Assembly: GCA_928721565.1 (NCBI GenBank)
Contig: OV788638.1
Location: 68,229 to 132,228, forward strand
Length of the DNA stretch: 64,000 nt
From: an uncultured Clostridia bacterium
GTDB lineage: Bacteria; Bacillota; Clostridia; TANB77; CAG-508
Direction of reading: 5' to 3'
Both the position numbers and the translations under genes were made by a program. Below are positions 3,001-62,192 of this stretch, one piece after another. Below the pieces are notes generated by a model. It saw only the letters and a list, made by a program, of their open reading frames with translations, made no database searches and was not told the origin of the DNA. The stretch's first letter is position 1. Each line of letters starts with the position of its first letter.

Positions 3001-3283
3001 GTTTGAATGTGTTTTTGTCTTGATATATTTGCTCTGGTGCATAGATTGTTATTTCTCCTGTTTTTCCTGTTCCTGCAAATATATCTTCATATGCTTTATG
3101 TGTTGTGTCACTTCCTTCTGTAGTGATATCTCCATCTGGTATTTTTGTAAATGCTGGCCCTAAATCTAAGCTTGTCATTGCTGTATATCCTGTCATTGCA
3201 AACATCTGAGCCATATCAGTTACATTACTTGTGTCAAATTTGTCTCCTAAGTCTAAGCTTGTCATTGCTGTGCATCCTGTACC
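1..3283 (-). pseudogene. Downstream (C-terminal) reading frame of giant DUF285/BspA-like surface protein gene. It is open from 3283 to the left window edge and shifted by one nt relative to ORF 3234..10883.
   Basis: Hand translation of the minus strand from 3283 gives GTGCTAMTSLDLGDKFDTSNVTDMAQMFAMTGYTAMTSLDLGPAFTKIPDGD..., which continues the DUF285 repeat. No minus-strand stop-bounded ORF is listed for 1..3233, although the DNA is homologous to coding parts of the giant genes (7..328 is identical to 3821..4142). This is consistent with one frame staying open past the window edge. Confidence 0.7.
7..328. repeat. ~322-bp exact direct repeat of 3821..4142 (DUF285-block cap region) within the first giant gene
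   Basis: Read by eye, 7..328 and 3821..4142 are identical (offset 3814). They diverge after gacttcaa. Confidence 0.85.
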
Positions 3284-6200
3284 GTTCAAACATCTCCCTC
3301 ATATCTGTTACATTACTTGTATCAAATTTGTCTCCTAAGTTCAAACTTGTCATTGCTGTGAATCCTGCATTAGCAAACATTCTTACCATATCTGTTACAT
3401 TGCTTGTGTCAAAATTACTTCCTAAATCTAGTACTGTCATGGCAAAAAATCCTGTACATTCAAACATACACCCCATATCAGTTACTTTACTTGTATCAAA
3501 TCTCTCTCCTAAATCTAAGCTTGTCATTGCTACATATCCTGTACCGCTAAACATTTTACTCATATTAGTTACATTACTTGTATCAAAATTTTCGCCTAAA
3601 TTTAGACTTGTCATTGCTGTATATCCTGTGTCTTCAAACATATAACTCATATTTGTTACATTACTTGTATCAAAATTGTTTCCTAAATCTAGTGCTGTCA
3701 TGGCTTCGCTTCCTGTATCTGCAAACATACAACTCATATTTGTTACATTAGTTGTATTTAATAATCCTATATTGGTAATTGTTTCTGTTGTCGCACAATT
3801 ATCTGAACTTCCTACTCCAGCAAATAAATAACTTGAATCTACATTTCCAAATATTGCATCATCACTACCTATATATACTTTAACAGTTCCATTTGCATTT
3901 GTTTCATACCATGCAATAATTGACTTATCTTGAGCTGCTGAAACATCCCATGCTGTATCATTTTTATATTCTTTTGCTGATTTGTCATAAATTGTTGTTG
4001 GTATGTTATCTACAAATGTTATATTATCTATATTTTTTCTTTGTATATTGGTATTTCCTAAGAATGCCTTACTAGCATTCCTCGTATTATCAAAGCCATT
4101 ACTATTAGCAACACGATCACTATCTACATTAGCAGACTTCAAAGTATTATAAATTCTAAAAATAGTATCTTTATTAGAATTACCAAACTTATCAGTAAGA
4201 ATACCAGAAGGAATGCCAAACGCAACCTGATTTTTATCTGTTGGATAATTAGAAACTGTAACAGTATATTGAACACCATATTGAACACTAGTTGTATTGC
4301 CTCCAGAAGTACGTTGTTCAGTTAGAGTTGTAGCTGAACTTAGTTCAATAGTTGCTCCTGTATACGGTACTCCATCAACAAATAATTTTATATCATCTTT
4401 TTTCAATGTACTATTTGCAAAATACTTATCAGTACCTTTTATAGTAACTGTTGCAGTTTTATTTTTAATATCTGTAGTACCACTTACTTTTTCCCATAAT
4501 GGATCAACTACGTCCACAATCTCTCCGCTTCCACTAGCATCTCCACCAGGAATATCAATACCTGAAGTAATTGTTTTTGCAATATTTTTATTTCCAGATG
4601 TATCAACCATCTTATCTGCTGGGATAGCTACTGTAATTACACCACTGTAATCCAAGTAATTATCTCCTTCTTTTATTTGAAGTTGTTCTAAATTAGATAA
4701 TGTTAAAGCATAGTGTTTACCAATAACTTTACTTTCTCCATTAACTATACTAGTTTTATTTTCAACTTGTAATGATACTGTTACTTTAGTTGTATCAATA
4801 TCTTTATCATCAACTTTAATTTTCAAGTCATTTGTAGTCAAGTCTGTTGATTTTGTTGAATCATAATATTTATCTATCATGTCAAATTCCATTGTAAATG
4901 TTTTGTCATCTTTGTTTATATCTGCAGTTGAGTACTTATATTTTACTTCTGGATTAATCATATCTAACATTTCAGAAATTGTTGTTGTTTCTTCATTTAT
5001 TGTATTTCCTTTAATGTCTCTTGCAGCTGTTTTGTCAATCTTAACTTCCAATGTTCCACTCAATTCCCTATAGTCTCTAGTAGATGTTATAAACTGTTCA
5101 TCTGTTTCTACTATTGGTGTTAATTCCAATGTATATTGATGTCCAACAACTTTTTCTTTACCATCAATTATTGTTTTTATTTCAACTGATTTTGTTATTG
5201 TTTTTGTTACTTTATTATCTATCTTTGTTCCATCCATCCATATTGTCATTTCATCTGTTGTTATAAGTTTTGATGAATCATAGTTTTTATCTGTAACATT
5301 AAAGATTATAGTTGCTTTATTATTTTCAACATCTTCTATTTTTTGTACTTTATAGATTTCTGGTCCTATTGAATCTATATTTCCTACATATAATTTTTGC
5401 TGTTTAGTTGAGTTTCCATATTGATCTGTTACAACTCCTGCTTTAATTATTAAAGATATATCTCCTCCATTTTCGTTTCTGTATTTAGCTGTATTTCCAA
5501 CTATTGGATCGATTGGAGTGAATTCTGTATATCCTCCATCTGCTGGAGTTATGTTTGTTAATGTTAGTGTATATTCATATTCTTGATTTGCCACTATTTC
5601 TTCTGGTCCTGTTAATGTTTTTATTATTGCTGTTGAATTTGTGTCATTTACAAGTATTTGAATATCTTCTTTTTTTAAGTTAAATATACTTGAATCTTTT
5701 GTCAAGAATTTATCTTTAACTCTTATTTTTACAATTCCATTGTCAGTATCAACACTTGGAACTGACCATACAGGATCAACTACATCCACTATTGTTCCGT
5801 TTCCGGTTCCATCTGGTTCATTTTTTCCTATAGTTATTGTTTGTGGTGCACTTTTGTTTTGTGATTTGTCTTTAACGGTTCCGGCTTCAAATGCTAGTGA
5901 CATATAACCACTATATTTGTAACCGTCACCAATTCCATCTTCTCCTTCTTGGTCTAGTCCTGTAATTGTTAATTTGTATCTTTCTCCGATTTTTGTATTT
6001 TCTACTCCGTCTACAGTGTCTGTTATGTCTTGGACTTTTTCAAGTGTTTTATTTATTGCTTTGTTTAATTCTGTTTTGTCATAATCATCAATTCCTACTG
6101 TTATTTGACTTGCATCTAAGTTTGATAATGTTGTGCTTTCAAAATATTTATCTACTACATCAAATGTTATTTCTACTTTTTCTCCTTCACCATGTACTAT

Positions 6201-10963: not shown

Positions 10964-11020
10964 CGTTTTTCGGCATTTTTTTCAAAAAAAAAATACACCA
11001 AAATTGGTAAAATTTCCGGT

Positions 11021-11356
11021 CATTTAGGACCGGTTCTTTGTTGTCGTTTTGGTGGTCGTTTGGGGTCGTTTGGGACCGGTTCTCTGCTGTCGTTTATTGG
11101 TCATTGGTGGTCGTTTGGGACCGGTTCTCTTTTGAACATTTGCTCATTTGGGACCGGTTCTTGAATGAGCAAAAATTGCCAAAAAAATAAAGGCAACATA
11201 GCCAAATAGCTATATTGTCTTTATATTTCTGTTCATTTGGGACCGGTTCTCTTTTGAACACCTGCTCATTAGGGACCGGTTCTTAAAGGGACAATGCTCA
11301 TTAGGGACCGGTTCTTAAAGGAACAATGTTCATTGGGGACCGGTTCTTAAATGAAC
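11021..11356 (+). repeat. REP-like cluster 1: 8 copies, all with GGGACCGGTTCT on the + strand
   Basis: Cores start at 11027 (TAGGACC variant), 11072, 11117, 11150, 11239, 11272, 11304 and 11336. Flanks are (T/G)(G)(T/C)TCATT...(TAAATGAACA or CTTTTGAACA). Confidence 0.9.
11181..11219 (-). terminator. Putative rho-independent terminator of the 6634-aa gene, located in the middle of REP cluster 1
   Basis: Stem ggcaacatagc (11192..11202) pairs with gctatattgtc (11209..11219): 11 bp with one mismatch and one G-T. On the minus strand it is followed by TTTATTTTTTT (plus-strand A-run 11181..11191). Confidence 0.5.
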
Positions 11357-11367
11357 AATGCAAATAT

Positions 11368-31352: not shown

Positions 31353-31450
31353 CATTTTTCAACGTTTTTTTGCTGTTTTTTCCTAAAAAATTTATACCAT
31401 TTTTGGCACTTTTTGGTTCGTTTTTTTTGCTGTTTTTGTGTGCCATTGTT

Positions 31451-31546
31451 GTGCCATTGGGACCGGTTCTTTGCTGGCCATTTGTTCATTAGGGACCGGT
31501 TCTCTTTTGATCAGTTGTTCATTTAAGAACCGGTCCCTAATGAACA
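31451..31546. repeat. REP-like cluster 2: 3 copies (+,+,-). The last two form an inverted REPIN-like doublet.
   Basis: Cores at 31459(+), 31492(+) and 31526(-). Confidence 0.9.
31483..31546. repeat. REPIN-like inverted doublet
   Basis: GTTCATTAGGGACCGGTTCT (31484..31503) and AGAACCGGTCCCTAATGAAC (31526..31545) are exact reverse complements separated by 22 nt. Confidence 0.85.
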
Positions 31547-31673
31547 CCTAGTGAACACCTAATGAACGATTATTTGATTAGAAAGTTGCTTTTATTGTCA
31601 TAATATGTTAAAATAAAATATGATTTTGGTAACTGTCAACCTTTTGTTCATATTTTAGGAGGTAAAATACATT

Positions 31674-33507: not shown

Positions 33508-33540
33508 ATGTTACATTTATGTTACATTTCTATTACATTT
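33508..33540. repeat. Three tandem 11-nt iterons RTRTTACATTT abutting a REP
   Basis: atgttacattt, atgttacattt, ctattacattt, followed directly by gttcattaGGGACCGGTTCT at 33541. Confidence 0.8.
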
Positions 33541-33616
33541 GTTCATTAGGGACCGGTTCTCTTTTGACCACTTTTTGTGGTCAGTTGTTCGTTTGGGACC
33601 GGTTCTTAAATGAACA
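33541..33616 (+). repeat. REP-like cluster 3: 2 copies (+)
   Basis: Cores at 33549 and 33595. Confidence 0.9.
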
Positions 33617-33624
33617 TTACCATC

Positions 33625-33657
33625 AAAAAAGGCAAAGTTTAATTCTTTGCCTTTTTT
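33625..33657 (-). terminator. Rho-independent terminator downstream of 33674..34855 (bidirectional shape)
   Basis: Stem ggcaaag (33631..33637) pairs with ctttgcc (33645..33651), loop tttaatt. Flanked by aaaaaa on the left and tttttt on the right. Confidence 0.7.
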
Positions 33658-34992: not shown

Positions 34993-35126
34993 GGAGTGGT
35001 TCTTTTTTGGTGTTTCTGAGTTGCATTTGTGTCATTTGGGACCGGTTCTTCACCGGTTATTTTTATGTAACCTGTTCGTTGAGGACCGGTTCTTAAATGT
35101 GCAGTTGTTCTTTTTGGACCGGTTCT
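34993..35126 (+). repeat. REP-like cluster 4: 3 copies (+) plus one degenerate copy
   Basis: Cores at 35038, 35083 (AGGACC variant) and 35116 (TGGACC variant). Degenerate GGAGTGGTTCT at 34993. Confidence 0.85.
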
Positions 35127-35155
35127 CTTTGGTTCCTCTTTGGTTCATTTTGGAT

Positions 35156-35558: not shown

Positions 35559-35679
35559 TTTACAATCCTTCCTTTACATCTTTTTTTCAAACTACTAATT
35601 ATATATAACACATTTTTGGGATTTTTTCAATTTTTATTATTTTATTTTTATAGCATATTATTTCTTCAACTATTTATGT

Positions 35680-35785
35680 GTTCATTTAAGAACCGGTCCC
35701 AAATGAACACCAAGTGAACATTGTTCAAGAGAGAACCGGTCCCTAATGAACAGTTGCACAAAGCAGAACCGGTCCCTAATGACAC
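35680..35785 (-). repeat. REP-like cluster 5: 3 copies, inverted orientation (AGAACCGGTCCC on + strand)
   Basis: Cores at 35689, 35732 and 35765. The last flank (taatgacac) runs into the hydA stop codon at 35786. Confidence 0.9.
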
Positions 35786-37543
35786 CTAATGACACAACTG
35801 ATATTTTTCTCTTTCAACATAATGAGTATGTAATAGCTTATGTGCCCTGTAGCTACCTGGTTCTTCAAGATATTCTGCGTAAATCTTTTTTACAACGGGA
35901 TTTTCATGTGATTTTCTAATCTTACTTTTTTCATCAATTGAATATAATGCATCTGATCTAAGTTTTCTCACATTAGTCTCTCGCCTAATCTTTGAAGTTT
36001 TAATTGGTTGGCCACCTCCCATTATGCAGCCTCCTGGACATGCCATTATTTCTACAAATTGATAATCTGCTTTACCTGATTTTATTTCCTCCATAATTTT
36101 CTGGGCATTAGCTAAGCCGCTTGCCGCAACAACTTTTAGGTCTTTTTTTCCGATTTTGACTGTTGCTCTTTTTATTCCTTCTCCACCTCTTACCTGTTCA
36201 AAGTCAATCTTTGGCAAATCTTTTCCAGTCAATGTATCTTGTGCTGTCCTTAATGCTGCTTCCATCACACCACCAGTGGTTCCGAAAATTGCCGCTGCTC
36301 CTGTTGCTTCTCCCATAGGCTCATCAAATTCACTATCTTCTAGTTTTTCAAATTCAATGTTGGCTTGTTTAATCATCCTTGATAGTTCTCTTGTTGTTAT
36401 AACATTATCAACATCATATAGTCCATTATTTTTTAGTTCATCTCTTTGTCTTTCAAATTTTTTTGCAATACATGGCATAACTGATACCACATAGATTTTT
36501 TCTGGATTTATTCCTTCTTTTTGTGCAAAGTAGGTTTTTGTCAAAGCGCCAAACATTTGATGTGGTGATTTACATGTTGACAAATGTGGTAATAATTCAG
36601 GATAATTCATTTCTATATATTTTACCCATCCTGGTGAACATGATGTTATCATTGGCAAATTATCATTTTCGTTTAATCTTTCTATAAATTCATGAGCTTC
36701 TTCTATTATTGTAAAATCTGCTCCAGTGTTTGTATCAAAGACTTTATCGAAACCAAGTCTTTTTAATGCTGTAACCATTTTCCCTTTAACATTAGTTCCT
36801 ATTGGCATTCCAAATTCTTCTCCAAGTGCAACTCTTACTGCAGGCGCAGTTTGAACAACTACATATGTATCTGGATCTTTTAATTTTACCCATACGTCAT
36901 TGATTGTTTCTTTTTCGTGTAATGCTCCTGTAGGACACGCTTGAATACATTGCCCACAATTAGTACAATTCACATCATTTAGACTATGATCTCCGACCGT
37001 AGATATGCATGATTCAAATCCACGATTTATGCAGTCTATTGCTCCAATTTTTTGTATATTTTTGCACGCCGCTACACATCTTCTGCATAATATGCATTTA
37101 TTAAAATCTCTTACAATAGATGGTGATAAATCGTCCACTTTGTGTTTTGTCATTTCACCTGGAAATTCAACATTTAATACATTAAACTTAACTGCTAATG
37201 TTTGTAATTCACAATTTCCTGAACGTGTACATGTTAAACAATCTTTCGCATGGTTAGAAATTATCAAATCTAATATGACATGTCTAGCTTCTAACACATT
37301 TGGAGTATGTGTATGTATCACCATTCCTTCTTCTACTGTCTGAATGCAAGATGTTGCAAACCCTCGTCTCCCTTCAATTTCAACTATACACATTCTGCAA
37401 TCTCCCACTTCATTGATATCTTTCAAAAAACATAATGTAGGAATATCTATTCCAGCTTGTTTTGCTGCTTCTAATATTGTTGTACTTTTTGGTACTTTTA
37501 CTTCTATTCCATCTATTTTTAAAGATATTAATTCTTTACTCAT
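35786..37543 (-). CDS. hydA: [FeFe]-hydrogenase catalytic subunit (HydA/HndD-like, multimeric NAD(P)-linked type)
   Basis: N-terminal 2Fe-2S ferredoxin-like fold (ISLKIDGIEVKVP...CRMCIVEIEG) and 4Fe-4S motifs (CILCRRCVAACK, CTNCGQCIQACP). H-cluster motifs ITSCSPGW, VMPCIAKKFE and EIMACPGGCIMGGGQP. Start moved to MSKELISL (RBS aggagg); the ORF-track N-terminal extension is REP-adjacent read-through. Confidence 0.9.
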   Translation of the reverse strand: MSKELISLKIDGIEVKVPKSTTILEAAKQAGIDIPTLCFLKDINEVGDCRMCIVEIEGRRGFATSCIQTVEEGMVIHTHTPNVLEARHVILDLIISNHAKDCLTCTRSGNCELQTLAVKFNVLNVEFPGEMTKHKVDDLSPSIVRDFNKCILCRRCVAACKNIQKIGAIDCINRGFESCISTVGDHSLNDVNCTNCGQCIQACPTGALHEKETINDVWVKLKDPDTYVVVQTAPAVRVALGEEFGMPIGTNVKGKMVTALKRLGFDKVFDTNTGADFTIIEEAHEFIERLNENDNLPMITSCSPGWVKYIEMNYPELLPHLSTCKSPHQMFGALTKTYFAQKEGINPEKIYVVSVMPCIAKKFERQRDELKNNGLYDVDNVITTRELSRMIKQANIEFEKLEDSEFDEPMGEATGAAAIFGTTGGVMEAALRTAQDTLTGKDLPKIDFEQVRGGEGIKRATVKIGKKDLKVVAASGLANAQKIMEEIKSGKADYQFVEIMACPGGCIMGGGQPIKTSKIRRETNVRKLRSDALYSIDEKSKIRKSHENPVVKKIYAEYLEEPGSYRAHKLLHTHYVEREKYQLCH

Positions 37544-37567
37544 ATCTTTCCTCCTTTGGTTCATTTG

Positions 37568-37715
37568 TGTCATTTAGGACCGGTTCTCTTTTGAGCACTG
37601 TGTCATTAGGGACCGGTTCTCAAATGTGCAATTGTTCACTTGGGACCGGTTCTTAAATGTGCAGTTGTACTTTAGGGACCGGTTCTTACTTGAACATATC
37701 ATGGATTGGTTCTCG
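37568..37715 (+). repeat. REP-like cluster 6: 4 copies (+) plus one degenerate copy, 33-nt period
   Basis: Cores at 37577 (TAGGACC variant), 37609, 37642 and 37675. Degenerate GGATTGGTTCT at 37703. The first core lies 34 nt upstream of the hydA ATG. Confidence 0.9.
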
Positions 37716-38252: not shown

Positions 38253-38272
38253 AAGATTTTTCCTCCTTCTTT

Positions 38273-38400
38273 TGTTCATTTGGGACCGGTTCTTTTTTGG
38301 ACAGTTGTTCATTTGGGACCGGTTCTTTTTTGGACAGTTGTTCATTTGGGACCGGTTCTTAAATGTTCAATTGTTCACTTGGGACCGGTTCTTAAATGAT
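38273..38400 (+). repeat. REP-like cluster 7: 4 copies (+) in a strict 33-nt tandem array
   Basis: Cores at 38282, 38315, 38348 and 38381. The unit gttcatttGGGACCGGTTCTtttttggacagtt is repeated. Confidence 0.9.
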
Positions 38401-38427
38401 CTTAAATGATCAGATGATCTTAAATAA

Positions 38428-40287
38428 TTAATTTCCAATTGCATGAAATGGACAATTAGTTAAACATGTTCCACATTTTATACACTTTTCTTGGTTAATA
38501 ACACGTTTTTCTCTTGCTTCTCCTTCGATTGCTCTAACTGGGCAATGTTTTTGGCATAATCCACATCCCTTGCATTTTTCGGAATCTATTACAATTTTCG
38601 ATAGTGCCTTACATTCTAGAGTTCTACATTCCTTTTCAATAGCATGTTGCCTAAATTCTTCCCTAAAATATTTCAAAGTACTAATAACTGGATTCGGTGC
38701 ACTCTGTCCAAGTCCACATATACTAGCCTTTTGAATATTTACAGCTAACTTTTCTAGTTTATAGATGTCATATTCTGACCCTTCACCTGAGCACAGTCTT
38801 TCTAACAATTCAAGCATTCTCTTTGTACCTATTCTGCAAGGTGTACATTTTCCACAGCTTTCGCTGACTGTAAATTCCAAATAGAATTTTGCCAAACATA
38901 CCATACATTTAGTATCATCCATTACAATTAATCCACCAGACCCCATCATTGATCCAATCGCTTTTAATGATTCATAATCAATAGGTGTATCTAAATGCTC
39001 TGCCGGAATACATCCTCCTGATGGTCCTCCTGTTTGTGCGGCTTTAAACTGTCTTCCATTAGGAATACCTCCTCCAATGTCAAATACTATTTCTCTTAAA
39101 GTTGTTCCCATAGGCACTTCTACCAGTCCGATATTATTGACATTTCCACCAAGCGCAAAAACTTTCGTGCCTTTTGATGTCTCTGTTCCTATTGACGAAT
39201 ACCATTCTGCGCCATTCAGTATAATTCTAGTAATATTTGCAAAAGTTTCTACATTATTAATAAGTGTTGGCTTTCCCCATAGACCTTTTTCTGCAGGATA
39301 AGGTGGCTTAACTCTAGGTTGCCCACGTTTTCCTTCAATCGATTCTAGTAATGCAGTTTCTTCACCACATACAAATGCTCCTGCTCCCAAACGGATTTCT
39401 ACGTCAAAGTCAAAATTTGTTTCAAATATATTTTTTCCTAAAATACCATATTCTTTGGCTTGGTCTATTGCTTTTTGAAATCTCTTAACAGCAATTGGAT
39501 ATTCAGCTCTAACGTAAATATATCCTTTATTTGCACCTATTGCAAAACCTGCAATCATCATTGCTTCTAATACTGAATGTGGATCACCTTCAAGTATACT
39601 TCTGTCCATAAATGCTCCTGGATCACCTTCATCAGCATTACAAACAATATATTTTTGATTAGATTCATATGATTTTGTAAGTTCCCATTTCTTTCCCGTA
39701 GGGAATCCTGCACCTCCACGTCCACGTAAGCCTGAAGCTTTTATAATTTCTATAACTTCTTCTGGTGTCATTTCTCTAAGTACTCTTTCCAAGGCTCTAT
39801 ATCCATCAAAGGCGATATATTCATCAATACTTTCTGGATTGATTATTCCACAGTTTTTTAGTGCAATTCTTTTTTGCTTTTTATAAAAATTTAAATCGTC
39901 TAATTTGTTAACAATACCTCCATCTATATCTCTGCAAAGTAGCCTTTCTACTATCTTTCCTTCAATTATATGAGTTTGTATTATTTCTTCACAATCTTCT
40001 GGTCTTACATTAGAATAAAATGTATCTTCCGGTCTAATAATCACAATTGGTCCTTTTGCACATAGTCCAAAACAACCAGTCATGATAACTCTTACATTAT
40101 TAATATTCTTTTCTTTTAGTATTTCTCTTAATTTTTCTAATATCTCTGGAGATTTTGATGATGTACATCCTGTTCCATGGCATACCAGTATATGTTTTTC
40201 TCTTGTATCTGCTTTTGTGTTTATTCTTAAATCTAATTCTTTTCTTTTTTCTTCTCTTATTTTATGTATCTTTTCTAAGTTTTTCAT
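38428..40287 (-). CDS. hydB: [FeFe]-hydrogenase flavoprotein subunit (HydB/HndC, NuoF-like, NAD(P)H- and FMN-binding)
   Basis: GLRGRGGAGFPTGKKW and CNADEGDPGAF (NuoF FMN/NADH motifs). ESCGKCTPCR (N3-type 4Fe-4S). C-terminal 2x CxxCxxCxxxCP (CKGCGLCQKHCP, CIKCGTCLTNCP). N-terminal thioredoxin-like 2Fe-2S (CHGTGC...GCFGLC). Confidence 0.9.
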   Translation of the reverse strand: MKNLEKIHKIREEKRKELDLRINTKADTREKHILVCHGTGCTSSKSPEILEKLREILKEKNINNVRVIMTGCFGLCAKGPIVIIRPEDTFYSNVRPEDCEEIIQTHIIEGKIVERLLCRDIDGGIVNKLDDLNFYKKQKRIALKNCGIINPESIDEYIAFDGYRALERVLREMTPEEVIEIIKASGLRGRGGAGFPTGKKWELTKSYESNQKYIVCNADEGDPGAFMDRSILEGDPHSVLEAMMIAGFAIGANKGYIYVRAEYPIAVKRFQKAIDQAKEYGILGKNIFETNFDFDVEIRLGAGAFVCGEETALLESIEGKRGQPRVKPPYPAEKGLWGKPTLINNVETFANITRIILNGAEWYSSIGTETSKGTKVFALGGNVNNIGLVEVPMGTTLREIVFDIGGGIPNGRQFKAAQTGGPSGGCIPAEHLDTPIDYESLKAIGSMMGSGGLIVMDDTKCMVCLAKFYLEFTVSESCGKCTPCRIGTKRMLELLERLCSGEGSEYDIYKLEKLAVNIQKASICGLGQSAPNPVISTLKYFREEFRQHAIEKECRTLECKALSKIVIDSEKCKGCGLCQKHCPVRAIEGEAREKRVINQEKCIKCGTCLTNCPFHAIGN

Positions 40288-40360
40288 TCATTTCCTCCTT
40301 TTGACCATTCGGCACATTCTGGAACATTTGAAGCATTTGTGTAATTCTGTACCATCGGTG

Positions 40361-40510
40361 CCATTTGGTGCCATTTGGACCATTTGGGACCATTTGGACC
40401 ATTTGGACCATTTGGGACCGGTTCTCTATTGACCTGTTCATTAGGGACCGGTTCTTTGCTGGTCATCTTTATGTAACCTGTTCTTTTGGGACCGGTTCTT
40501 AAATGAACAT
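40361..40510 (+). repeat. REP-like cluster 8: about 6 tandem 9-10-nt half-REP units (CATTTGG(G)AC) leading into 3 full copies (+)
   Basis: ccatttggtg ccatttggac catttgggac catttggac catttggac catttGGGACCGGTTCT. Cores at 40414, 40444 and 40488. Confidence 0.9.
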
Positions 40511-40516
40511 CAAAAA

Positions 40517-41041
40517 TTATGTTGTACTTAATTCGTCTAGAACCTGATCTAATTTTTGTACAGTGGCTTTTCCATAAACTTCACCATTAACTGTAAAAAC
40601 AGGAGCTAATCCACATGCACCAACACATCTTGTTTCTTCTATAGAAAATTTTCCATCTTCTGTTGTTTCTCCAACTTCTATATTGAGTCTTTCTTTTAAT
40701 CGATCCATTATTTTTTGGGATCCTTTTACAAAACATGCCGTTCCCAAACAAACTGAAATATTATATTTTCCTTTTGGTTTTAGTGTAAATCTTGAATAAA
40801 AAGTTACTACTCCATAAATTTCAGCCATTGGAATATCTAGAAATTTTGATAATACTCCTTGCGCATTCATTGGGATATAGCCGTAATGTTCTTGCACTTC
40901 ATTTAAAATTTGAATCAAATTATCTTTTATAGGCTGATATTTATTACATAATTCTTCCAGAAATTTATCTTTTTTATTTTCCTCACATTGACACCCACAT
41001 TTAGTTTCTTTTACTGTGTTTTGCTTTGTATTTTCTTTCAT
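40517..41041 (-). CDS. hydC: [FeFe]-hydrogenase small subunit (HydC/HndA, NuoE-like thioredoxin-like 2Fe-2S)
   Basis: SVCLGTACFVKG ... RCVGACGLAP are the NuoE-type Cys motifs. Position upstream of hydB fits. Confidence 0.85.
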   Translation of the reverse strand: MKENTKQNTVKETKCGCQCEENKKDKFLEELCNKYQPIKDNLIQILNEVQEHYGYIPMNAQGVLSKFLDIPMAEIYGVVTFYSRFTLKPKGKYNISVCLGTACFVKGSQKIMDRLKERLNIEVGETTEDGKFSIEETRCVGACGLAPVFTVNGEVYGKATVQKLDQVLDELSTT

Positions 41042-41133
41042 ATAAATTCCTCCTATAATATTATATTTGCATTATATCAAAGTATTATTTTTTTAACAAG
41101 ATTTTTTCGACTTTTTTTACCTTTAGTCATTAG

Positions 41134-41230
41134 TGTTCATTAGGGACCGGTTCTCTTTTAACCAATTGTTCATTAGGGACCGGTTCCTAAATGAACTAAT
41201 GTCCAATAAAGAACCGGTCCCTAATGAACC
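41134..41230. repeat. REP-like cluster 9 (3' flank of the RAYT gene): 3 copies (+,+,-). The last two form a REPIN-like doublet.
   Basis: Cores at 41143(+), 41176(+, GGGACCGGTTCC) and 41210(-). GTTCATTAGGGACCGGTTC (41168..) and GAACCGGTCCCTAATGAAC (..41229) are exact reverse complements. Confidence 0.9.
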
Positions 41231-41255
41231 AATAGCCTTAATGCCTAATCACAAA

Positions 41256-42044
41256 TTATTTTGCATCCCAAGCTTTACTGACAATTCTCTTATTTACCCT
41301 TATAACCCTTGCTACTTGGTTTTTACATGATCCCTTTATTTTTTTTATAATTTTGATATCATTTTCAAGGTTTTCTTTTTCTCTTGTCTTAAAAAAATTT
41401 GCAAACTCATTCATGTCACAAATCTTAAATTTTTTCATAATAATTTGAATCAATTCTTCATCTGACAATCTGTTTATAATTTCATATTCGGCATAATCGT
41501 ATAAATTTTCCATTTCTTCAAGTTCTAATCTAGTAGTATATTTTATGAATTCACTTATATCATTATTAAAATAGTGCATTAAAACCTTTTTATTAATTAT
41601 TTTTTCGTTTCCTATGTATTCATTATAACTACTCCACTTATATTTTTCTGTTTTAGCAATTCCTGCTTTTTCTGGATTTCTATGGACATATCTGCAGACT
41701 TCTAAAAAATATCTCTGACTTTCAACACATTTGCTCTTGAATCTATTCTGAACTAAAGGTCCGGACCTATCATATCTAGTATTAAAATAATACACATATC
41801 TAATCATTAAACTTTGAATCATTTTCGATAAAAATTTTATTTCATTTTTTATAACTATATGTACATGATTAGTCATTAAACAGTATGAATAAATTTCTGA
41901 ATTAAATTCTTTTTTGAGTTTTAAAATTTGTTTTAAGAAATAATTTCTATCTTGATCATCATAAAAAATATCTTGATTATCAATTCCTTTTATAATTACA
42001 TGATAAATTTTCGAGTTGCTTTCTCTTCTTTGTCTTCTTGGCAT
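41256..42044 (-). CDS. IS200/IS605-family Y1 (HUH) transposase-like protein, REP-associated tyrosine transposase (RAYT) type, with extra C-terminal domain
   Basis: YHVIIKG...YSYCLMTNHVHIVIK (HUH motif HVH followed by hydrophobics). NRFKSKCVESQRYFLEVCRYVHRNPEKAGI...YKWSSYNEY is the typical COG1943/RayT pattern with the catalytic Tyr in RYVHRNP. 262 aa; the C-terminal ~90 aa may be an HTH (GSCKNQVARVIRVNKRIVSKAW). RBS aaaggagga. Confidence 0.8.
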   Translation of the reverse strand: MPRRQRRESNSKIYHVIIKGIDNQDIFYDDQDRNYFLKQILKLKKEFNSEIYSYCLMTNHVHIVIKNEIKFLSKMIQSLMIRYVYYFNTRYDRSGPLVQNRFKSKCVESQRYFLEVCRYVHRNPEKAGIAKTEKYKWSSYNEYIGNEKIINKKVLMHYFNNDISEFIKYTTRLELEEMENLYDYAEYEIINRLSDEELIQIIMKKFKICDMNEFANFFKTREKENLENDIKIIKKIKGSCKNQVARVIRVNKRIVSKAWDAK

Positions 42045-42088
42045 TTTTCCTCCTTTCTATTTTTTTCAGTAATTATTTTACGTGTATC

Positions 42089-42117
42089 ATTATAACATGT
42101 TTTTTATATTATGTCTA
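42089..42117 (-). promoter_or_regulatory. Putative promoter of the RAYT gene (-35 TAGACA, 17 nt spacer, extended -10 TGTTATAAT)
   Basis: Minus strand reads TAGACA (42112..42117), a 17-nt spacer ending in TGT, then TATAAT (42089..42094). Confidence 0.5.
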
Positions 42118-42149
42118 CATATTCTACTGAAAAATAAATACAAAAGTTC

Positions 42150-42241
42150 TGGCAAGAACCGGTCCCAAGTGAACAACTGCACATTTAAGAACCGGTCCCT
42201 GATGAACAATTGTCCAAAAGAGAACCGGTCCCTAATGATCA
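42150..42241 (-). repeat. REP-like cluster 10 (5' flank of the RAYT gene): 3 copies, inverted orientation, 33-nt period
   Basis: Cores (AGAACCGGTCCC) at 42155, 42188 and 42221. Confidence 0.9.
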
Positions 42242-43078
42242 TTATTTTATAAGTTGTAGCATATCACTATTGCTATTTAATCCTTCAAGATTGTAATAGC
42301 TCTCTGGAATATTTCCAACAATGACATGTTCAGCAATAATAACTTGATTAGTTACTTTCTGAGTATAATTTTTCAATGGTGTTACTATTTTCATGTCACA
42401 GTCAAAATTCACATATACTCTGTGTAATGATTGATTAATTCCTTGTGCAATGAATTCACTTTTTATATCTGTTTCTACATTTCCTGTAATTGATATAGTG
42501 ATTGGTATTTCTGGTCCAAATCCTGAAATAAAGTATATTCCTGATAAATTTCCTAATGTTATTGCTATATCTGTTTTTCCTATATTGTCAAATTCGTGTT
42601 GAATGTTTTCTGTTAAGTCTGAAATTAGATTGTTTATTGGTACAACATTTGCTTTGACTATCATAACATTACCGTTTCCGTCTTTTTCTAGTGTATATAA
42701 TTGGTTATATTGATATTTGTTCATTATTAGTGTTGATTGCTGATTCGTTATAATAGTTGCAACCGATTTCACTTTTTCTTCGCATAGTGTTTTAAATACT
42801 GGTTCAAAGTAGTAGAAAATAAATCTGAAGATTATTATTATTCCAACTAATACTATAATAAGCTTTACTATTTTTCTTTTTTTATGCCTTCCTATAGCAG
42901 ACCTTCCTGAATCATCCCCTCCTGTATTATATCTTCCTGAATCATGCCCTCCTGTATTATGTCTTCCTGTATTATCCCCTCCTGAATAAGAACTGTTATT
43001 ATTTTTTTTTCTATTTTTATATGCCAATATCACAAATCTTCTTCTTGAATATATTTTGCTAATTTTTTCCTCAGCCAT
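42242..43078 (-). CDS. yunB: Sporulation protein YunB
   Basis: N-terminal TM segment, then ...ITLGNLSGIYFISGFGPEIPITISITGNVETDIKSEFIAQGINQSLHRVYVNFDCDMKIVTPL, which matches the conserved YunB core. The N-terminal region has a G/D/T-rich repeat (GGDNTGRHNTGGHDSGRYNTGGDDSGR). Confidence 0.75.
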   Translation of the reverse strand: MAEEKISKIYSRRRFVILAYKNRKKNNNSSYSGGDNTGRHNTGGHDSGRYNTGGDDSGRSAIGRHKKRKIVKLIIVLVGIIIIFRFIFYYFEPVFKTLCEEKVKSVATIITNQQSTLIMNKYQYNQLYTLEKDGNGNVMIVKANVVPINNLISDLTENIQHEFDNIGKTDIAITLGNLSGIYFISGFGPEIPITISITGNVETDIKSEFIAQGINQSLHRVYVNFDCDMKIVTPLKNYTQKVTNQVIIAEHVIVGNIPESYYNLEGLNSNSDMLQLIK

Positions 43079-43161
43079 TAATTGTCTCCTTGATTTCTAC
43101 AATTTGTTATATTCTTTTGCTAGTTTTAATACTTAATTGACTTTCATAATTTATCTTATGA

Positions 43162-44742
43162 TTATACAACTTGCGGAATGACAATTGGTTCTTTTGTTCT
43201 TTTTAATACATATTTAGGAATATATATTTTCTCACCTACGTTTAGTCTGTCAGGTCTTTCCATTCCATTTACTCTAGCAATATCATCAACTGTGCTACCA
43301 AATCTTTTTGCTATTTTCCATAGAGTATCACCGCTTTTGACCACATATATTATTACACTATAGTCTTCATTTTTTTCTTCTTCTTCCATTGATATATCAC
43401 TAATTACAGGTATTGCAGAATTTATATATATATTAGTTGTAAAACATAAGTCAACATTTGCGCTTACTATTCTAGATTGATTTAAAAATTCTTGTGAATT
43501 TACTTCAATATCTGTATCTATTTTGCATTCGTCAGATGTTTCAATATCGCCAATTGTTTGCTCAAATGGTATTGATAATTGTTTTGTATTAATTCCAATA
43601 ACTGAATTATCTGTAAATATCATATTTACTTCAATTTCACCTTCAATTATGATTTTTCCACTCATCTTGCTTTCATTATTTATAACTGGATTTAGCGTCA
43701 CTTCAATAATATTTCCGTTTTCGAGTTCAGGGATATCTATTTTTTCTCTAATCTTGCATATATTTTGACTACATTGTTTTTTTATCATTGTGTTGACCAT
43801 ACTTTTATTAAAATCCATTTTTTCGCCTGGGCAATACATGTCTTGTATCATTTGAATTTCTCTTTCTTCATATGACATACAGTAAATTTCAGTTTCCATC
43901 TCAATATATACTGAATGTTCTTCCATTGCATTTGGCTTTATTATTATGTTTTTTATCATATATGTTGTCTCACAAATATTTTCTTCTTTTATATTTGGCA
44001 TGTCAATAAAGCCTACTAGTGGTAATCTTCCTTGAAAGTTACATATACGTCCATCTTCTGTTAGATATACTAGTTTGACCTCAATTTCTGATTTTGCAAG
44101 AATTTTGTTATAACTTATTTTGATGTCTTTGTCTACTAAATTGATTTGTGCATTTAATATTTCTGCTAAATTATCTGTACTTGGAATTGAAATATTTTCT
44201 TTTACTGATGTTTTTGCCATACCACTTCCAAACAAAGAATTGATTTTCATATTTTTATTTAATACTTGAATATTACTGTCATTTAAATTAGTTATTATAT
44301 CAATTGTTTCTTGTGAATATATTTTTATATAAATTTCTAGTGTTACTTTTATTCCTATTTTTCTTCCATTAATTACATTACATTCCATCAATTTGATTTT
44401 TGGTATAATGTCAACTTCCATCCCATTGACAAGTTCTGGAATGTTTAAATTTTCTGAAAAATCCAAGTTTGTATTTAATCCTCTTATGTTGTCTGTTTTT
44501 GCCACTTCGCTGTCATTATCTGCTAAGTACATTATATATGTTAATATGTTTCCATCTAATTTAATCTTTCCGTCCATAACTTCTTTTTTGTAAATGCATA
44601 CATTTCCACTTGTATTAATAGTATTTAGTATATCAGGTTTTGAATCGGGTACAATCATATCACCCTGTATATTTATTATTTCCTTTTTTTCAGTTACAAC
44701 TTTGCTAATATTTAAAGTTTCTTTTGTTATATTTATTTCCAT
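43162..44742 (-). CDS. DUF3794 (SPOCS)-type repeat protein with C-terminal LysM domain, SipL/SpoVID-like spore-coat morphogenesis candidate
   Basis: C-terminal LysM (YVVKSGDTLWKIAKRFGSTVDDIARVNGMERPDRLNVGEKIYIP). Size 526 aa and the sporulation gene neighbourhood fit. The DUF3794 assignment is from recall of the architecture, not an alignment. Confidence 0.5.
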   Translation of the reverse strand: MEINITKETLNISKVVTEKKEIINIQGDMIVPDSKPDILNTINTSGNVCIYKKEVMDGKIKLDGNILTYIMYLADNDSEVAKTDNIRGLNTNLDFSENLNIPELVNGMEVDIIPKIKLMECNVINGRKIGIKVTLEIYIKIYSQETIDIITNLNDSNIQVLNKNMKINSLFGSGMAKTSVKENISIPSTDNLAEILNAQINLVDKDIKISYNKILAKSEIEVKLVYLTEDGRICNFQGRLPLVGFIDMPNIKEENICETTYMIKNIIIKPNAMEEHSVYIEMETEIYCMSYEEREIQMIQDMYCPGEKMDFNKSMVNTMIKKQCSQNICKIREKIDIPELENGNIIEVTLNPVINNESKMSGKIIIEGEIEVNMIFTDNSVIGINTKQLSIPFEQTIGDIETSDECKIDTDIEVNSQEFLNQSRIVSANVDLCFTTNIYINSAIPVISDISMEEEEKNEDYSVIIYVVKSGDTLWKIAKRFGSTVDDIARVNGMERPDRLNVGEKIYIPKYVLKRTKEPIVIPQVV

Positions 44743-48654: not shown

Positions 48655-48730
48655 GCCACTATAGCTCAGTTGGTAGAGCGACGGATTCGTAACCCGTAGG
48701 TCAGCAGTTCGATTCTGCTTAGTGGCTCCA
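48655..48730 (+). tRNA. tRNA-Thr, anticodon CGT
   Basis: Hand-folded cloverleaf: acceptor GCCACTA/TAGTGGC, D-arm GCTCAGTTGGTAGAGC, anticodon loop TTCGTAA, T-arm AGCAGTTCGATTCTGCT, encoded 3' TCCA. 76 nt. Confidence 0.85.
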
Positions 48731-53982: not shown

Positions 53983-54007
53983 TATTTATTCCTCCAATCT
54001 TTACATG

Positions 54008-54116
54008 GTACATTAGGGACCGGTTCTTCGCTGATCATTTTTATGTAACTTGTTCACTAGGGACCGGTTCTTTCTTGACACACTTGTTCATTTAAGAACC
54101 GGTCCCTAATGAACAA
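54008..54116. repeat. REP-like cluster 11: 3 copies (+,+,-). The last two form a REPIN-like doublet.
   Basis: Cores at 54016(+), 54060(+) and 54095(-). GTTCACTAGGGACCGGTTCT (54052..54071) pairs with AGAACCGGTCCCTAATGAAC (54095..54114) as an inverted repeat with one mismatch. Confidence 0.9.
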
Positions 54117-54124
54117 CTGAACAC

Positions 54125-54147
54125 AAAAACTGGTCCCCAAGGACCAG
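54125..54147 (-). terminator. Rho-independent terminator after 54152..55726
   Basis: ctggtcc (54130..54136) pairs with ggaccag (54141..54147), loop ccaa. On the minus strand it is followed by TTTTTGTGT. Confidence 0.65.
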
Positions 54148-57597: not shown

Positions 57598-57610
57598 ATT
57601 GGAAAAACTG

Positions 57611-57730
57611 TTCATTTAATGTTCATTTAAGAACCGGTCCCTAATGAACAAGTTACATAAAAATGATCGGCGAAGAACCGGTCCCTAATGAACATAGTCA
57701 AGAGAGAACCGGTCCCTAATGAACAAAAGG
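57611..57730 (-). repeat. REP-like cluster 12: 3 copies, inverted orientation
   Basis: Cores (AGAACCGGTCCC) at 57630, 57674 and 57705. The last flank taatgaaca abuts the RBS aaaggag of the U32 gene. Confidence 0.9.
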
Positions 57731-57740
57731 AGATTTTATT

Positions 57741-62023: not shown

Positions 62024-62047
62024 TTTTTCTTCTCCTTGCTGACCATT

Positions 62048-62140
62048 GACCATTTAGGACCGGTTCTCTGCTGAACACTTGCTCATTTGGGACCGGTTCT
62101 CTGAGGAACACTTGCTCATTTGGGACTGGTTCTCTGAGGA
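62048..62140 (+). repeat. REP-like cluster 13: 2 copies (+) plus one degenerate copy, 33-nt period
   Basis: Cores at 62057 (TAGGACC variant) and 62089. Degenerate GGGACTGGTTCT at 62122. The first core lies 34 nt upstream of the dxs ATG. Confidence 0.85.
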
Positions 62141-62192
62141 ACATGTGTCATGGTAAAATTAGTTTACCACGAAAATCTAGCATTTTCAAGTT

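Follow-up and report, generated by a model that had tools for sequence, protein, structure and literature searches.

A HUH/Y1 nuclease gene with a C-terminal HTH-type domain between inverted clusters of a hairpin repeat in an uncultured Clostridia bacterium

Background

Does the gene for a small HUH/Y1 nuclease in an uncultured Clostridia bacterium maintain the family of short intergenic palindromes in which it is embedded, or do the gene and the repeats only share a neighbourhood? This question is raised by a 64-kb stretch of contig OV788638.1 (positions 68,229 to 132,228; this whole stretch is referred to as the window), in which an open reading frame (ORF) of 262 codons is bracketed by inverted clusters of an abundant repeat. 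The arrangement resembles that of the repetitive extragenic palindromes (REPs) and the REP-associated tyrosine transposases (RAYTs), which are the model example of domesticated transposases and of replicators that persist within genomes over long times. To our knowledge, they have been described almost entirely from Proteobacteria, with GTAG-tagged hairpins. Comparison with related loci indicates that this is probably a REPtron/TIRtron-type locus, that is, a domesticated class-2 HUH-Y1 nuclease with a lineage-specific helix-turn-helix (HTH) domain that maintains its own REP-like hairpins.

Results

The Y1 protein and its C-terminal domain

The gene (Table 1) starts with ATG and encodes a protein with the motifs NHVHIVI (H60/H62), CRYVHRNPEKAG (the RYVHRNPEKAG region, which includes Y119) and YKWSSY. 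The Pfam domain Y1_Tnp (PF01797) matches residues 13-122 with E=9.6e-9, and the top NCBIfam model for the protein is NF047646 (REP_Tyr_transpos), with 54.7 bits at a cut-off of 80. In a set of 57 relatives (36-71% identity), NF047646 matches every protein and is the top NCBIfam model for all of them (best E=4.3e-22), whereas the NCBIfam IS200 model is matched by only 31 (best E=5.8e-6). Residues H62, Y119, N123, P124 and W137-S139 are invariant in this set, and H60 is kept in at least 90% of the sequences. The segment Y119-V-H-R-N123-P124, with its invariant Y, N and P, represents Y---NP, the tyrosine signature of class 2 in the classification of PMC6006769, where the serine motif is described in general terms only. 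The RAYTs characterized by Nunvar 2010 contain NP(L/V)(R/K)xG beside the tyrosine and a 100% conserved threonine near the N-terminus. The corresponding motif in the window protein, NPEKAG, fits this pattern at five of the six positions, with E replacing L/V, and there is no threonine in residues 1-30 of the window protein (MPRRQRRESNSKIYHVIIKGIDNQDIFYDD) or in the family consensus.

The AlphaFold2 model (predicted local distance difference test, pLDDT, of 87) comprises three parts: a Y1 core that is extended by helices up to about residue 172, a disordered linker (residues 175-191) and a five-helix domain (residues 192-262). A Foldseek search started with this model identifies chain 4er8_A, from the complex of the E. 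coli RAYT with a REP hairpin (Messing 2012), as the best match in the PDB (E=1.8e-7, TM 0.72 on the target, 145 columns), followed by the IS608, ISDra2 and IS200 transposases.

The C-terminal domain modelled alone reaches a pLDDT of 92.7. The highest-TM superposition of the whole domain is with the DNA-binding domain of DnaA (TM 0.50), which at E ~3 is not significant; the other Foldseek hits are largely HTH proteins, no Foldseek match has E<1, and there is no significant structural neighbour among them. A PDB profile search with this domain yields only HTH matches at E ~0.4-1, and Pfam gives only sub-threshold matches for the domain of the window protein alone. In the relatives, HTH_23 matches 8 of the 57 (best 1.2e-5), and HTH_28, Xre-like and Sigma70_r4 domains match others. 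A search of 1.84 billion representatives with the domain profile returns 100 matches, all located at the C-terminus of proteins of the same type of at most 284 aa. Thus, the C-terminal segment is an HTH-type domain that has diverged and is confined to this clade of Y1 proteins.

These results agree with an initial annotation made from the letters of the sequence alone, which had read the same HUH and tyrosine motifs in the 262-aa ORF and noticed an extra C-terminal segment, possibly an HTH; the Pfam search and the structure prediction that it proposed as checks gave the Y1_Tnp match and the folded five-helix domain behind a linker. Its good promoter and ribosome-binding site were also recovered: the promoter-like sequence (11/12 in a consensus scan) has the joint-highest score of the scanned region and the best score on the strand of the gene, and GGAGG stands 4 nt before the ATG.

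The repeat unit and its arrangement in the window

Read on the GGGAC strand, the consensus of the repeat is TGTTCATTw-GGGACCGGTTC-Tywww-TGAACA, so that a unit of ~33 nt has the arms TGTTCA...TGAACA and the loop GGGAC(C)GGTTC. Conservation is complete or nearly complete at the 11 positions of the core GGGACCGGTTC (1.8-2.0 bits) and lower in the arms. The 19-mer GAACCGGTCCCTAATGAAC, with at most three mismatches, has 42 matches in the window compared with 0.00 in 100 shuffles. A scan with the 11-nt core, with at most one mismatch, finds 45 copies, where none is expected by chance, in 13 clusters that are spread over 51 kb and all lie between ORFs; the initial annotation had counted 44 REPs, and its repeat positions around the gene agree with the core scan within a base or two. 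The most frequent 16-mer of the flanks occurs in 18 copies in the 64 kb, and between 31 and 42 kb there is a cluster in almost all gaps between genes. Neighbouring units have the same orientation in ~29 cases versus 3 inverted ones (~90% head-to-tail), often with an exact period of 32-33 nt.

The two flanks of the Y1 gene align as an inverted repeat of 63 nt, and the flanking units are near-identical. Viewed on the coding strand, the upstream units read GGGACCGGTTC, two downstream units read its complement, and the unit adjoining the stop codon reads GGGAC again. The resulting +,+,- pattern of the downstream cluster is common to three clusters of the window (at 31.4, 41.1 and 54.0 kb).

As single-stranded DNA, the good copies that were folded form hairpins with z between -3.2 and -4.0. 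The best hairpin is that of the unit 11138-11176 (-9.3 kcal/mol, z=-4.0), and the unit 41164-41200, beside the gene, gives -6.2 and -6.4 kcal/mol on the two strands (z ~-3.3). The GGGAC strand folds better in 266 of the 326 units under RNA parameters and in 172 versus 115 under DNA parameters; this strand is G+T-rich and composition alone may explain the bias, so it is not relied on here.

A literature search retrieved no paper describing the repeat sequence, and a scan of the window against Rfam at the gathering threshold matches a tRNA only and none of the repeats; a known RNA family was rejected on this basis. A CRISPR array was considered and rejected, given that the 33-nt period leaves no room for unique spacers, the 13 sites are scattered between genes, and no cas genes were seen.

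Inverted flanks, loops and arms in related loci

A database search with the protein yields 740 matches at E<=0.001; the best 120 of these, examined as listed, are nearly all full-length (~260 aa), and many reside on contigs of 1-3 kb. Two metagenome contigs with an identical gene (L082 and L084, positions 1-80) start exactly in the upstream repeat cluster; the identical gene is also present on a contig of >1 Mb. Together with the location of most homologues on such short contigs, the starts within the cluster suggest that the repeats break short-read assemblies of these metagenome-assembled genomes (MAGs).

Among the GTDB species representatives, 264 stretches encode a relative, and the best 80 of these (loci with L-numbers below) were analysed with ~6.8 kb fetched around each gene. 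Nearly all are uncultured Clostridia MAGs from gut samples, with the addition of one Bacillaceae genome, Fredinandcohnia; the species of the window is not among them, and the top match is 72% identical. Inverted 10-mers are common to both flanks of the gene in 66 of the 80 loci, and upstream of the gene the GGAC strand is the coding strand in 51 loci and the opposite strand in 6 (p=6e-10). Thus, the single RAYT-type Y1 gene bracketed by inverted abundant palindromes, as the initial annotation had described it, recurs across species. In many distant relatives, few repeat copies are detected within the ~6.8 kb around the gene.

The repeat core varies together with the protein. The core GGGACCGGTTC accompanies proteins with 69-78% identity to that of the window, GGGACCGGGTA a protein with 65%, GGGACGGTTC proteins with ~50-59% (and also several more distant relatives, e.g., L055, L061, L071 and L080), GGGACGTTTC those with ~40-46% and GGGACAGGCA those with ~37-42%; further variants in relatives include GGTGCCGGTTC and GGTACCGGAGA. 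The arms vary even among species with a common core: they are GTTCA/TGAAC in the window, TGCAC/GTGCA in L003, TCCCCA/TGGGGA in L027, ATGTCTCA/TGAGACAT in L056 and ATGGCAAGT/ACTTGCCAT in L079. Clusters in orthologous gaps of L001-L003 likewise keep the core and differ in the arms.

Covariation was assessed in an alignment of one unit per locus, namely the nearest upstream core match, picked blind to pairing, plus three units of the window. In a nine-pair stem, 68.3% of the cells are paired. Shuffling gives 53.4%, with none of 500 shuffles as high as the real alignment, and sliding the partner gives 37-45%. Cells in which both sides have changed number 60, versus 29 in the shuffles, none of which exceeds the observed count. 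Since the core follows the protein clade and changes on one side of the stem are compensated on the other, the unit is a hairpin in which the arms are specific to the species and a loop of 11-19 nt is conserved in the family.

Some homologous ORFs run into the downstream repeat, where ...EPVPN... is the translation of GAACCGGTCCCTAAT, which results in spurious C-terminal extensions in gene calls; examples are the C-terminus of P0118 and other members of the alignment that end in EPVQNG, EPALNA or EPVLNA.

Copy number, synteny and selection

A tblastn search finds a single copy of the gene in the window. Two homologues are present in 5 of the 75 assemblies with relatives. The single copy expected by the initial annotation is seen in the 64 kb of the window, and the gene appears to be mostly single-copy among the relatives. 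The two homologues are 54-61% identical, and the two pairs for which a core was detected (L009/L012 and L022/L029) do not share it; at least one of the pairs may be a binning mixture, since both copies adjoin SipL-YunB.

The order SipL-like, YunB-like, Y1 gene, NuoE-like, NuoF-like is kept in L001-L004. Synteny is partial in L005, L021 and L024, which keep the upstream SipL-YunB, and in L037, where the order is conserved and an additional stretch precedes the gene. The repeat clusters occupy the same intergenic positions in L001-L003 and L037. The dN/dS ratio of the Y1 gene is 0.13-0.19; for the NuoF-like neighbour, with an equal dS (~0.9-1.4, near saturation), it is 0.02-0.03. The Y1 gene is therefore under purifying selection, and its HTH domain evolves at about twice the rate of the Y1 domain (pN of 0.23-0.26 versus 0.10-0.18). 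In plasmids, phage genomes and viral contigs, only distant matches were found, mostly to the N-terminal domain, with no full-length relatives, and there is no tnpB near the gene.

Two loci deviate in detail. In L013 (CAKPGU010000008.1, gene 3001-3786), the Y1 gene is flipped between the otherwise conserved SipL-YunB and NuoE-NuoF neighbours, the outcome expected of recombination between the inverted repeats that flank it. L037 (CAKOYU010000002.1, 3001-3781) is the closest GTDB relative by its best segment (78%) but has a much weaker E-value. Its ORF is shortened to 240 aa, and additional DNA separates YunB from the gene; this copy may have suffered a frameshift or be in decay.

Features of the window and genomic neighbourhood

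The features discussed here are collected in Table 1. The sporulation genes next to the Y1 gene place the host among the spore-forming Clostridia, with 30% G+C. Two giant ORFs, of 2549 and 6634 aa, contain many DUF285 (BspA-type repeat) matches; the larger one also matches Laminin_G_3 and has internal DNA repeats, e.g., the 16-mer ACATTACTTGTATCAA, which occurs 17 times. Both are probably huge surface proteins.

Table 1. Coordinates of the Y1 gene, the repeat clusters and neighbouring features in the window
Feature	Coordinates	Strand	Basis or remark
Gene for HUH/Y1 nuclease, RAYT/TIRYT-like, 262 aa	41256..42044	-	ORF; Pfam Y1_Tnp; NF047646 54.7 bits; AlphaFold2 pLDDT 87; Foldseek 4er8_A
Y1 catalytic domain and RAYT-type helical extension, aa 1-172	41529..42044	-	HUH H60/H62; Y119 in Y---NP; WSS 137-139
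C-terminal five-helix HTH-type domain, aa 192-262, after disordered linker aa 175-191	41259..41471	-	AlphaFold2 pLDDT 92.7
Promoter-like TAGACA-17-TATAAT with upstream TG	42089..42117	-	Consensus scan, 11/12
Ribosome-binding site GGAGG, 4 nt before ATG	42049..42053	-	Read from sequence
Upstream cluster, three hairpin units (cores 42166, 42199, 42232)	42146..42241	-	GGGAC strand is coding strand; begins right after YunB-like stop codon
Downstream cluster, two units inverted relative to upstream (cores 41143, 41176) and one opposite unit (41211-41221, -)	41129..41236	+	Convergent pair
Eight-unit cluster between the two giant ORFs	11005..11365	+	Core scan; holds best hairpin 11138-11176
Cluster, 3 units (+,+,-)	31440..31560	.	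Core scan
Cluster, 2 units	33530..33625	+	Core scan
Cluster, 3 units	35020..35145	+	Core scan
Cluster, 3 units	35670..35800	-	Core scan
Cluster, 4 units	37560..37705	+	Core scan
Cluster, 4 units, exact 33-nt period (e.g., 38282-38381)	38265..38410	+	Core scan
Cluster, 3 units	40395..40515	+	Core scan
Cluster, 3 units (+,+,-)	54000..54130	.	Core scan
Cluster, 3 units	57610..57735	-	Core scan
Cluster, 3 units	62040..62150	+	Core scan
Sporulation genes, YunB-like and SipL/LysM-like	42242..44742	-	
NuoE/NuoF-like genes	38428..41041	-	2Fe-2S thioredoxin-like, Complex1_51K
Giant ORF, 2549 aa	3234..10883	-	DUF285 matches
Giant ORF, 6634 aa	11368..31272	-	DUF285 and Laminin_G_3 matches
tRNA gene	48655..48727	+	Only Rfam match of the window at gathering threshold

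Discussion

Comparison with known Y1 systems

The TIRYTs of TIRtrons are longer Y1 proteins flanked by inverted repeats with the motif GGGGWSAS, some families of which are self-complementary, moderately abundant and clustered (Di Nocera et al. 2013, PMC3733652). They have been equated with subclass 2.1 of TnpA(REP), which is characterized by a serine motif and a C-terminal Bac_DnaA_C/HTH_23/HTH_28-like domain (Quentin et al. 2018, PMC6006769). The window protein resembles this group in that it belongs to class 2 of the Y1 proteins, exceeds the RAYTs in length and has a serine motif (WSS) after the tyrosine and a C-terminal HTH domain of the HTH_23/HTH_28/DnaA_C type. Terminal inverted repeats flank its gene, and their motif approaches GGGGWSAS to a varying degree: it is GGGGACAG, GGGGACGG and GGGGACGT in relatives and (A/T)GGGACCG in the window. 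The match to GGGGWSAS extends over 8 of the 8 positions in L033 (GGGGACAG), 7 in L027 and L056, and 6 in the window (AGGGACCG/TGGGACCG). Unlike subclass 2.1, beside the genes of which no REP-like secondary structures were reported (PMC6006769), the flanking unit here is a hairpin with compensatory changes in the arms; the 45 copies in 64 kb, predominantly head-to-tail, and the uncultured gut Clostridia as hosts are also distinct.

The RAYTs of E. coli and Pseudomonas, with their REPs and the composite elements known as BIMEs and REPINs (Nunvar 2010; Bertels & Rainey 2011), share with the present system the Y1 fold (nearest to 4ER8), the HUH motif and Y---NP, the location of the gene between inverted copies of an abundant intergenic palindrome, the co-evolution of repeat and protein, an evolution that is faster than that of the neighbours and yet vertical, and, in the two pairs examined, divergent paralogues of the same assembly with different repeats. 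In contrast to these RAYTs, the Clostridia system has no GTAG or GT[AG]G foot, carries the family-conserved bases in the loop, and includes an extra HTH domain; the protein has NPEKAG and lacks the conserved N-terminal threonine, its score is below the NF047646 cut-off, and the units are mostly head-to-tail instead of forming head-to-head and tail-to-tail dimers. For REP/BIME, head-to-tail dimers are rare (PMC3733652). In Clostridia, Group 1 RAYTs have been noted, and no more than that (Bertels 2017).

By these published descriptions, and judged from its sequence, the protein appears closest to TIRYT/TnpA(REP) subclass 2.1, which fits better than a classical GTAG-REP RAYT. The RAYT-REP association proposed in the initial annotation therefore holds for the RAYT-like fold and layout and does not hold for membership in the canonical RAYTs, given the lack of GTAG and of the N-terminal threonine and the score of 54.7 versus 80 bits.

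Evidence for and against a repeat-maintaining nuclease

The features that distinguish RAYT/TnpA(REP) from IS200 transposases are single or low copy number, vertical inheritance, faster evolution than the neighbours, inverted cognate repeats, repeat-protein co-evolution and Y---NP (Nunvar 2010, Bertels 2017, Quentin 2018). Because the locus largely shows these hallmarks, with one copy of the gene in the window, a domesticated HUH nuclease is its most likely function. Several observations weigh against the view that this nuclease maintains the hairpins. Head-to-tail units in such a proportion could equally come from replication slippage without a transposase; the arms of many units are degenerate and pair weakly (median perfect stem 4-5 bp); a GTAG foot, which the E. 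coli RAYT reads, is absent from the repeat, the fully conserved bases of which are in the loop; and the protein is under the equivalog cut-off of NF047646. Furthermore, no Y1 chain of the PDB was found by sequence, even with a profile of 65 sequences, so that the protein is connected to 4ER8 by the fold search only. Finally, a comparison of four metagenome contigs of this species shows identical 3+3+3 units at the locus, with no presence/absence polymorphism of units, and recent mobility is not seen among them. The initial annotation had suggested an active or recently active system; only purifying selection and the near-identity of the flanking units speak for this.

Three other explanations of the locus can be weighed against the same data. 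That the gene encodes the transposase of an ordinary autonomous insertion sequence (IS) of the IS200/IS605 type, with the flanking repeats as its ends and the other copies as decayed ISs or miniature inverted-repeat transposable elements, is highly unlikely. The HUH-Y1 fold, the Pfam Y1_Tnp match, the weak matches of 31 of the 57 relatives to the NCBIfam IS200 model and the position of the IS608 and ISDra2 TnpA as the next structural matches are all expected under this explanation, and DNA hairpin recognition, as presumed here, would be shared with these transposases. However, there is one copy in 64 kb, which is syntenic across species with a dS equal to that of the neighbours, and the paralogues are 54-61% identical instead of near-identical. 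The flanking hairpins are inverted, whereas IS200/IS605 elements have them on one strand; the tyrosine motif is of class 2, not class 1; no tnpB is located nearby; and the searches of plasmids and phages gave no full-length relatives. The repeats might instead be structural or regulatory elements of the host (terminators, mRNA stabilisers or protein-binding sites) spread by slippage and gene conversion independently of the Y1 protein, which would lie among them by chance or, by way of its HTH domain, bind them as a mere regulator. One unit does score as terminator-like, exact 33-nt head-to-tail arrays occur in places, as slippage would give, and with clusters in nearly every gap between 31 and 42 kb the flanking of any gene there by repeats is not surprising. 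Nevertheless, we consider this explanation unlikely, since the inverted arrangement and the orientation recur in many species (66 of the 80 loci), often with few copies detected within ~6.8 kb, the core tracks the protein clade, the same-assembly pairs L009/L012 and L022/L029 have different cores, and in 31 of the 45 copies the GGGAC strand, which folds better, lies antisense to the genes around it.

It is also conceivable, at a quite low probability, that the Y1-HTH protein has a cellular role in the processing of single-stranded DNA or in connection with replication and that the terminal inverted repeats mainly serve their own locus, through regulation or in-place inversion. Replication-fork targeting has been proposed for the DnaA-like domains of subclass 2.1 (PMC6006769), the DNA-binding domain of DnaA gives the highest-TM full-domain superposition of the C-terminal domain, the gene of L013 is inverted in place between its repeats, and many distant relatives have few repeat copies in the sequence fetched. 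In the window, however, copies of the unit abound at large distances from the gene, with 13 clusters over 51 kb; the similarity to DnaA is not significant (E ~3), and the conserved repeat motif is unlike the DnaA box (PMC6006769).

A possible mechanism

The data themselves establish the fold and the motifs of the protein, the arrangement, co-variation and hairpin structure of the repeat units, the synteny of the gene and the selection on it. For the repeat-maintaining nuclease, a mechanism can be proposed by analogy with E. coli TnpA(REP) and IS608 TnpA, on which the predicted DNA binding, cleavage and mobility, as well as the role assigned to the HTH domain, are modelled. The protein would bind the folded single-stranded hairpin, with the unpaired loop bases read by the protein and the HTH domain possibly helping; cleavage would proceed through Y119 with the HUH-bound metal, after which the DNA would be rejoined. 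In this way, a repeat family made up mostly of head-to-tail arrays could be created, homogenised and maintained between the genes. Recognition by group-3 RAYTs requires bases of the loop (PMC8266576), which makes a loop-borne conserved motif plausible here.

Conclusions

A bolder proposal, to which we give somewhat less than an even chance, is that Y1-HTH proteins of the TIRYT/subclass 2.1 type run a genuine REP system of a distinct "loop-tagged" class, one that is common to a large clade of gut Clostridia as yet uncultured. In this system, a large GGGAC... loop, in place of a GTAG foot, would supply the recognition bases, the arms would drift in a compensatory manner, 33-nt head-to-tail arrays would fill many of the gaps in the window, and the HTH domain would add specificity. 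If so, the domesticated RAYT-REP symbiosis would extend to Bacillota, with a different recognition logic. The locus and its ~260 relatives point to a RAYT-like logic in uncultured gut Clostridia, in which a nuclease gene that is mostly single-copy is inherited vertically and co-evolves with a hairpin. The Y1+HTH type had earlier been reported without REP-like hairpins; in the present system it is accompanied by hairpins with conserved bases in the loop and by head-to-tail arrays. The system thus offers a concrete pair of substrate and enzyme for asking what the HTH domain adds to hairpin recognition.

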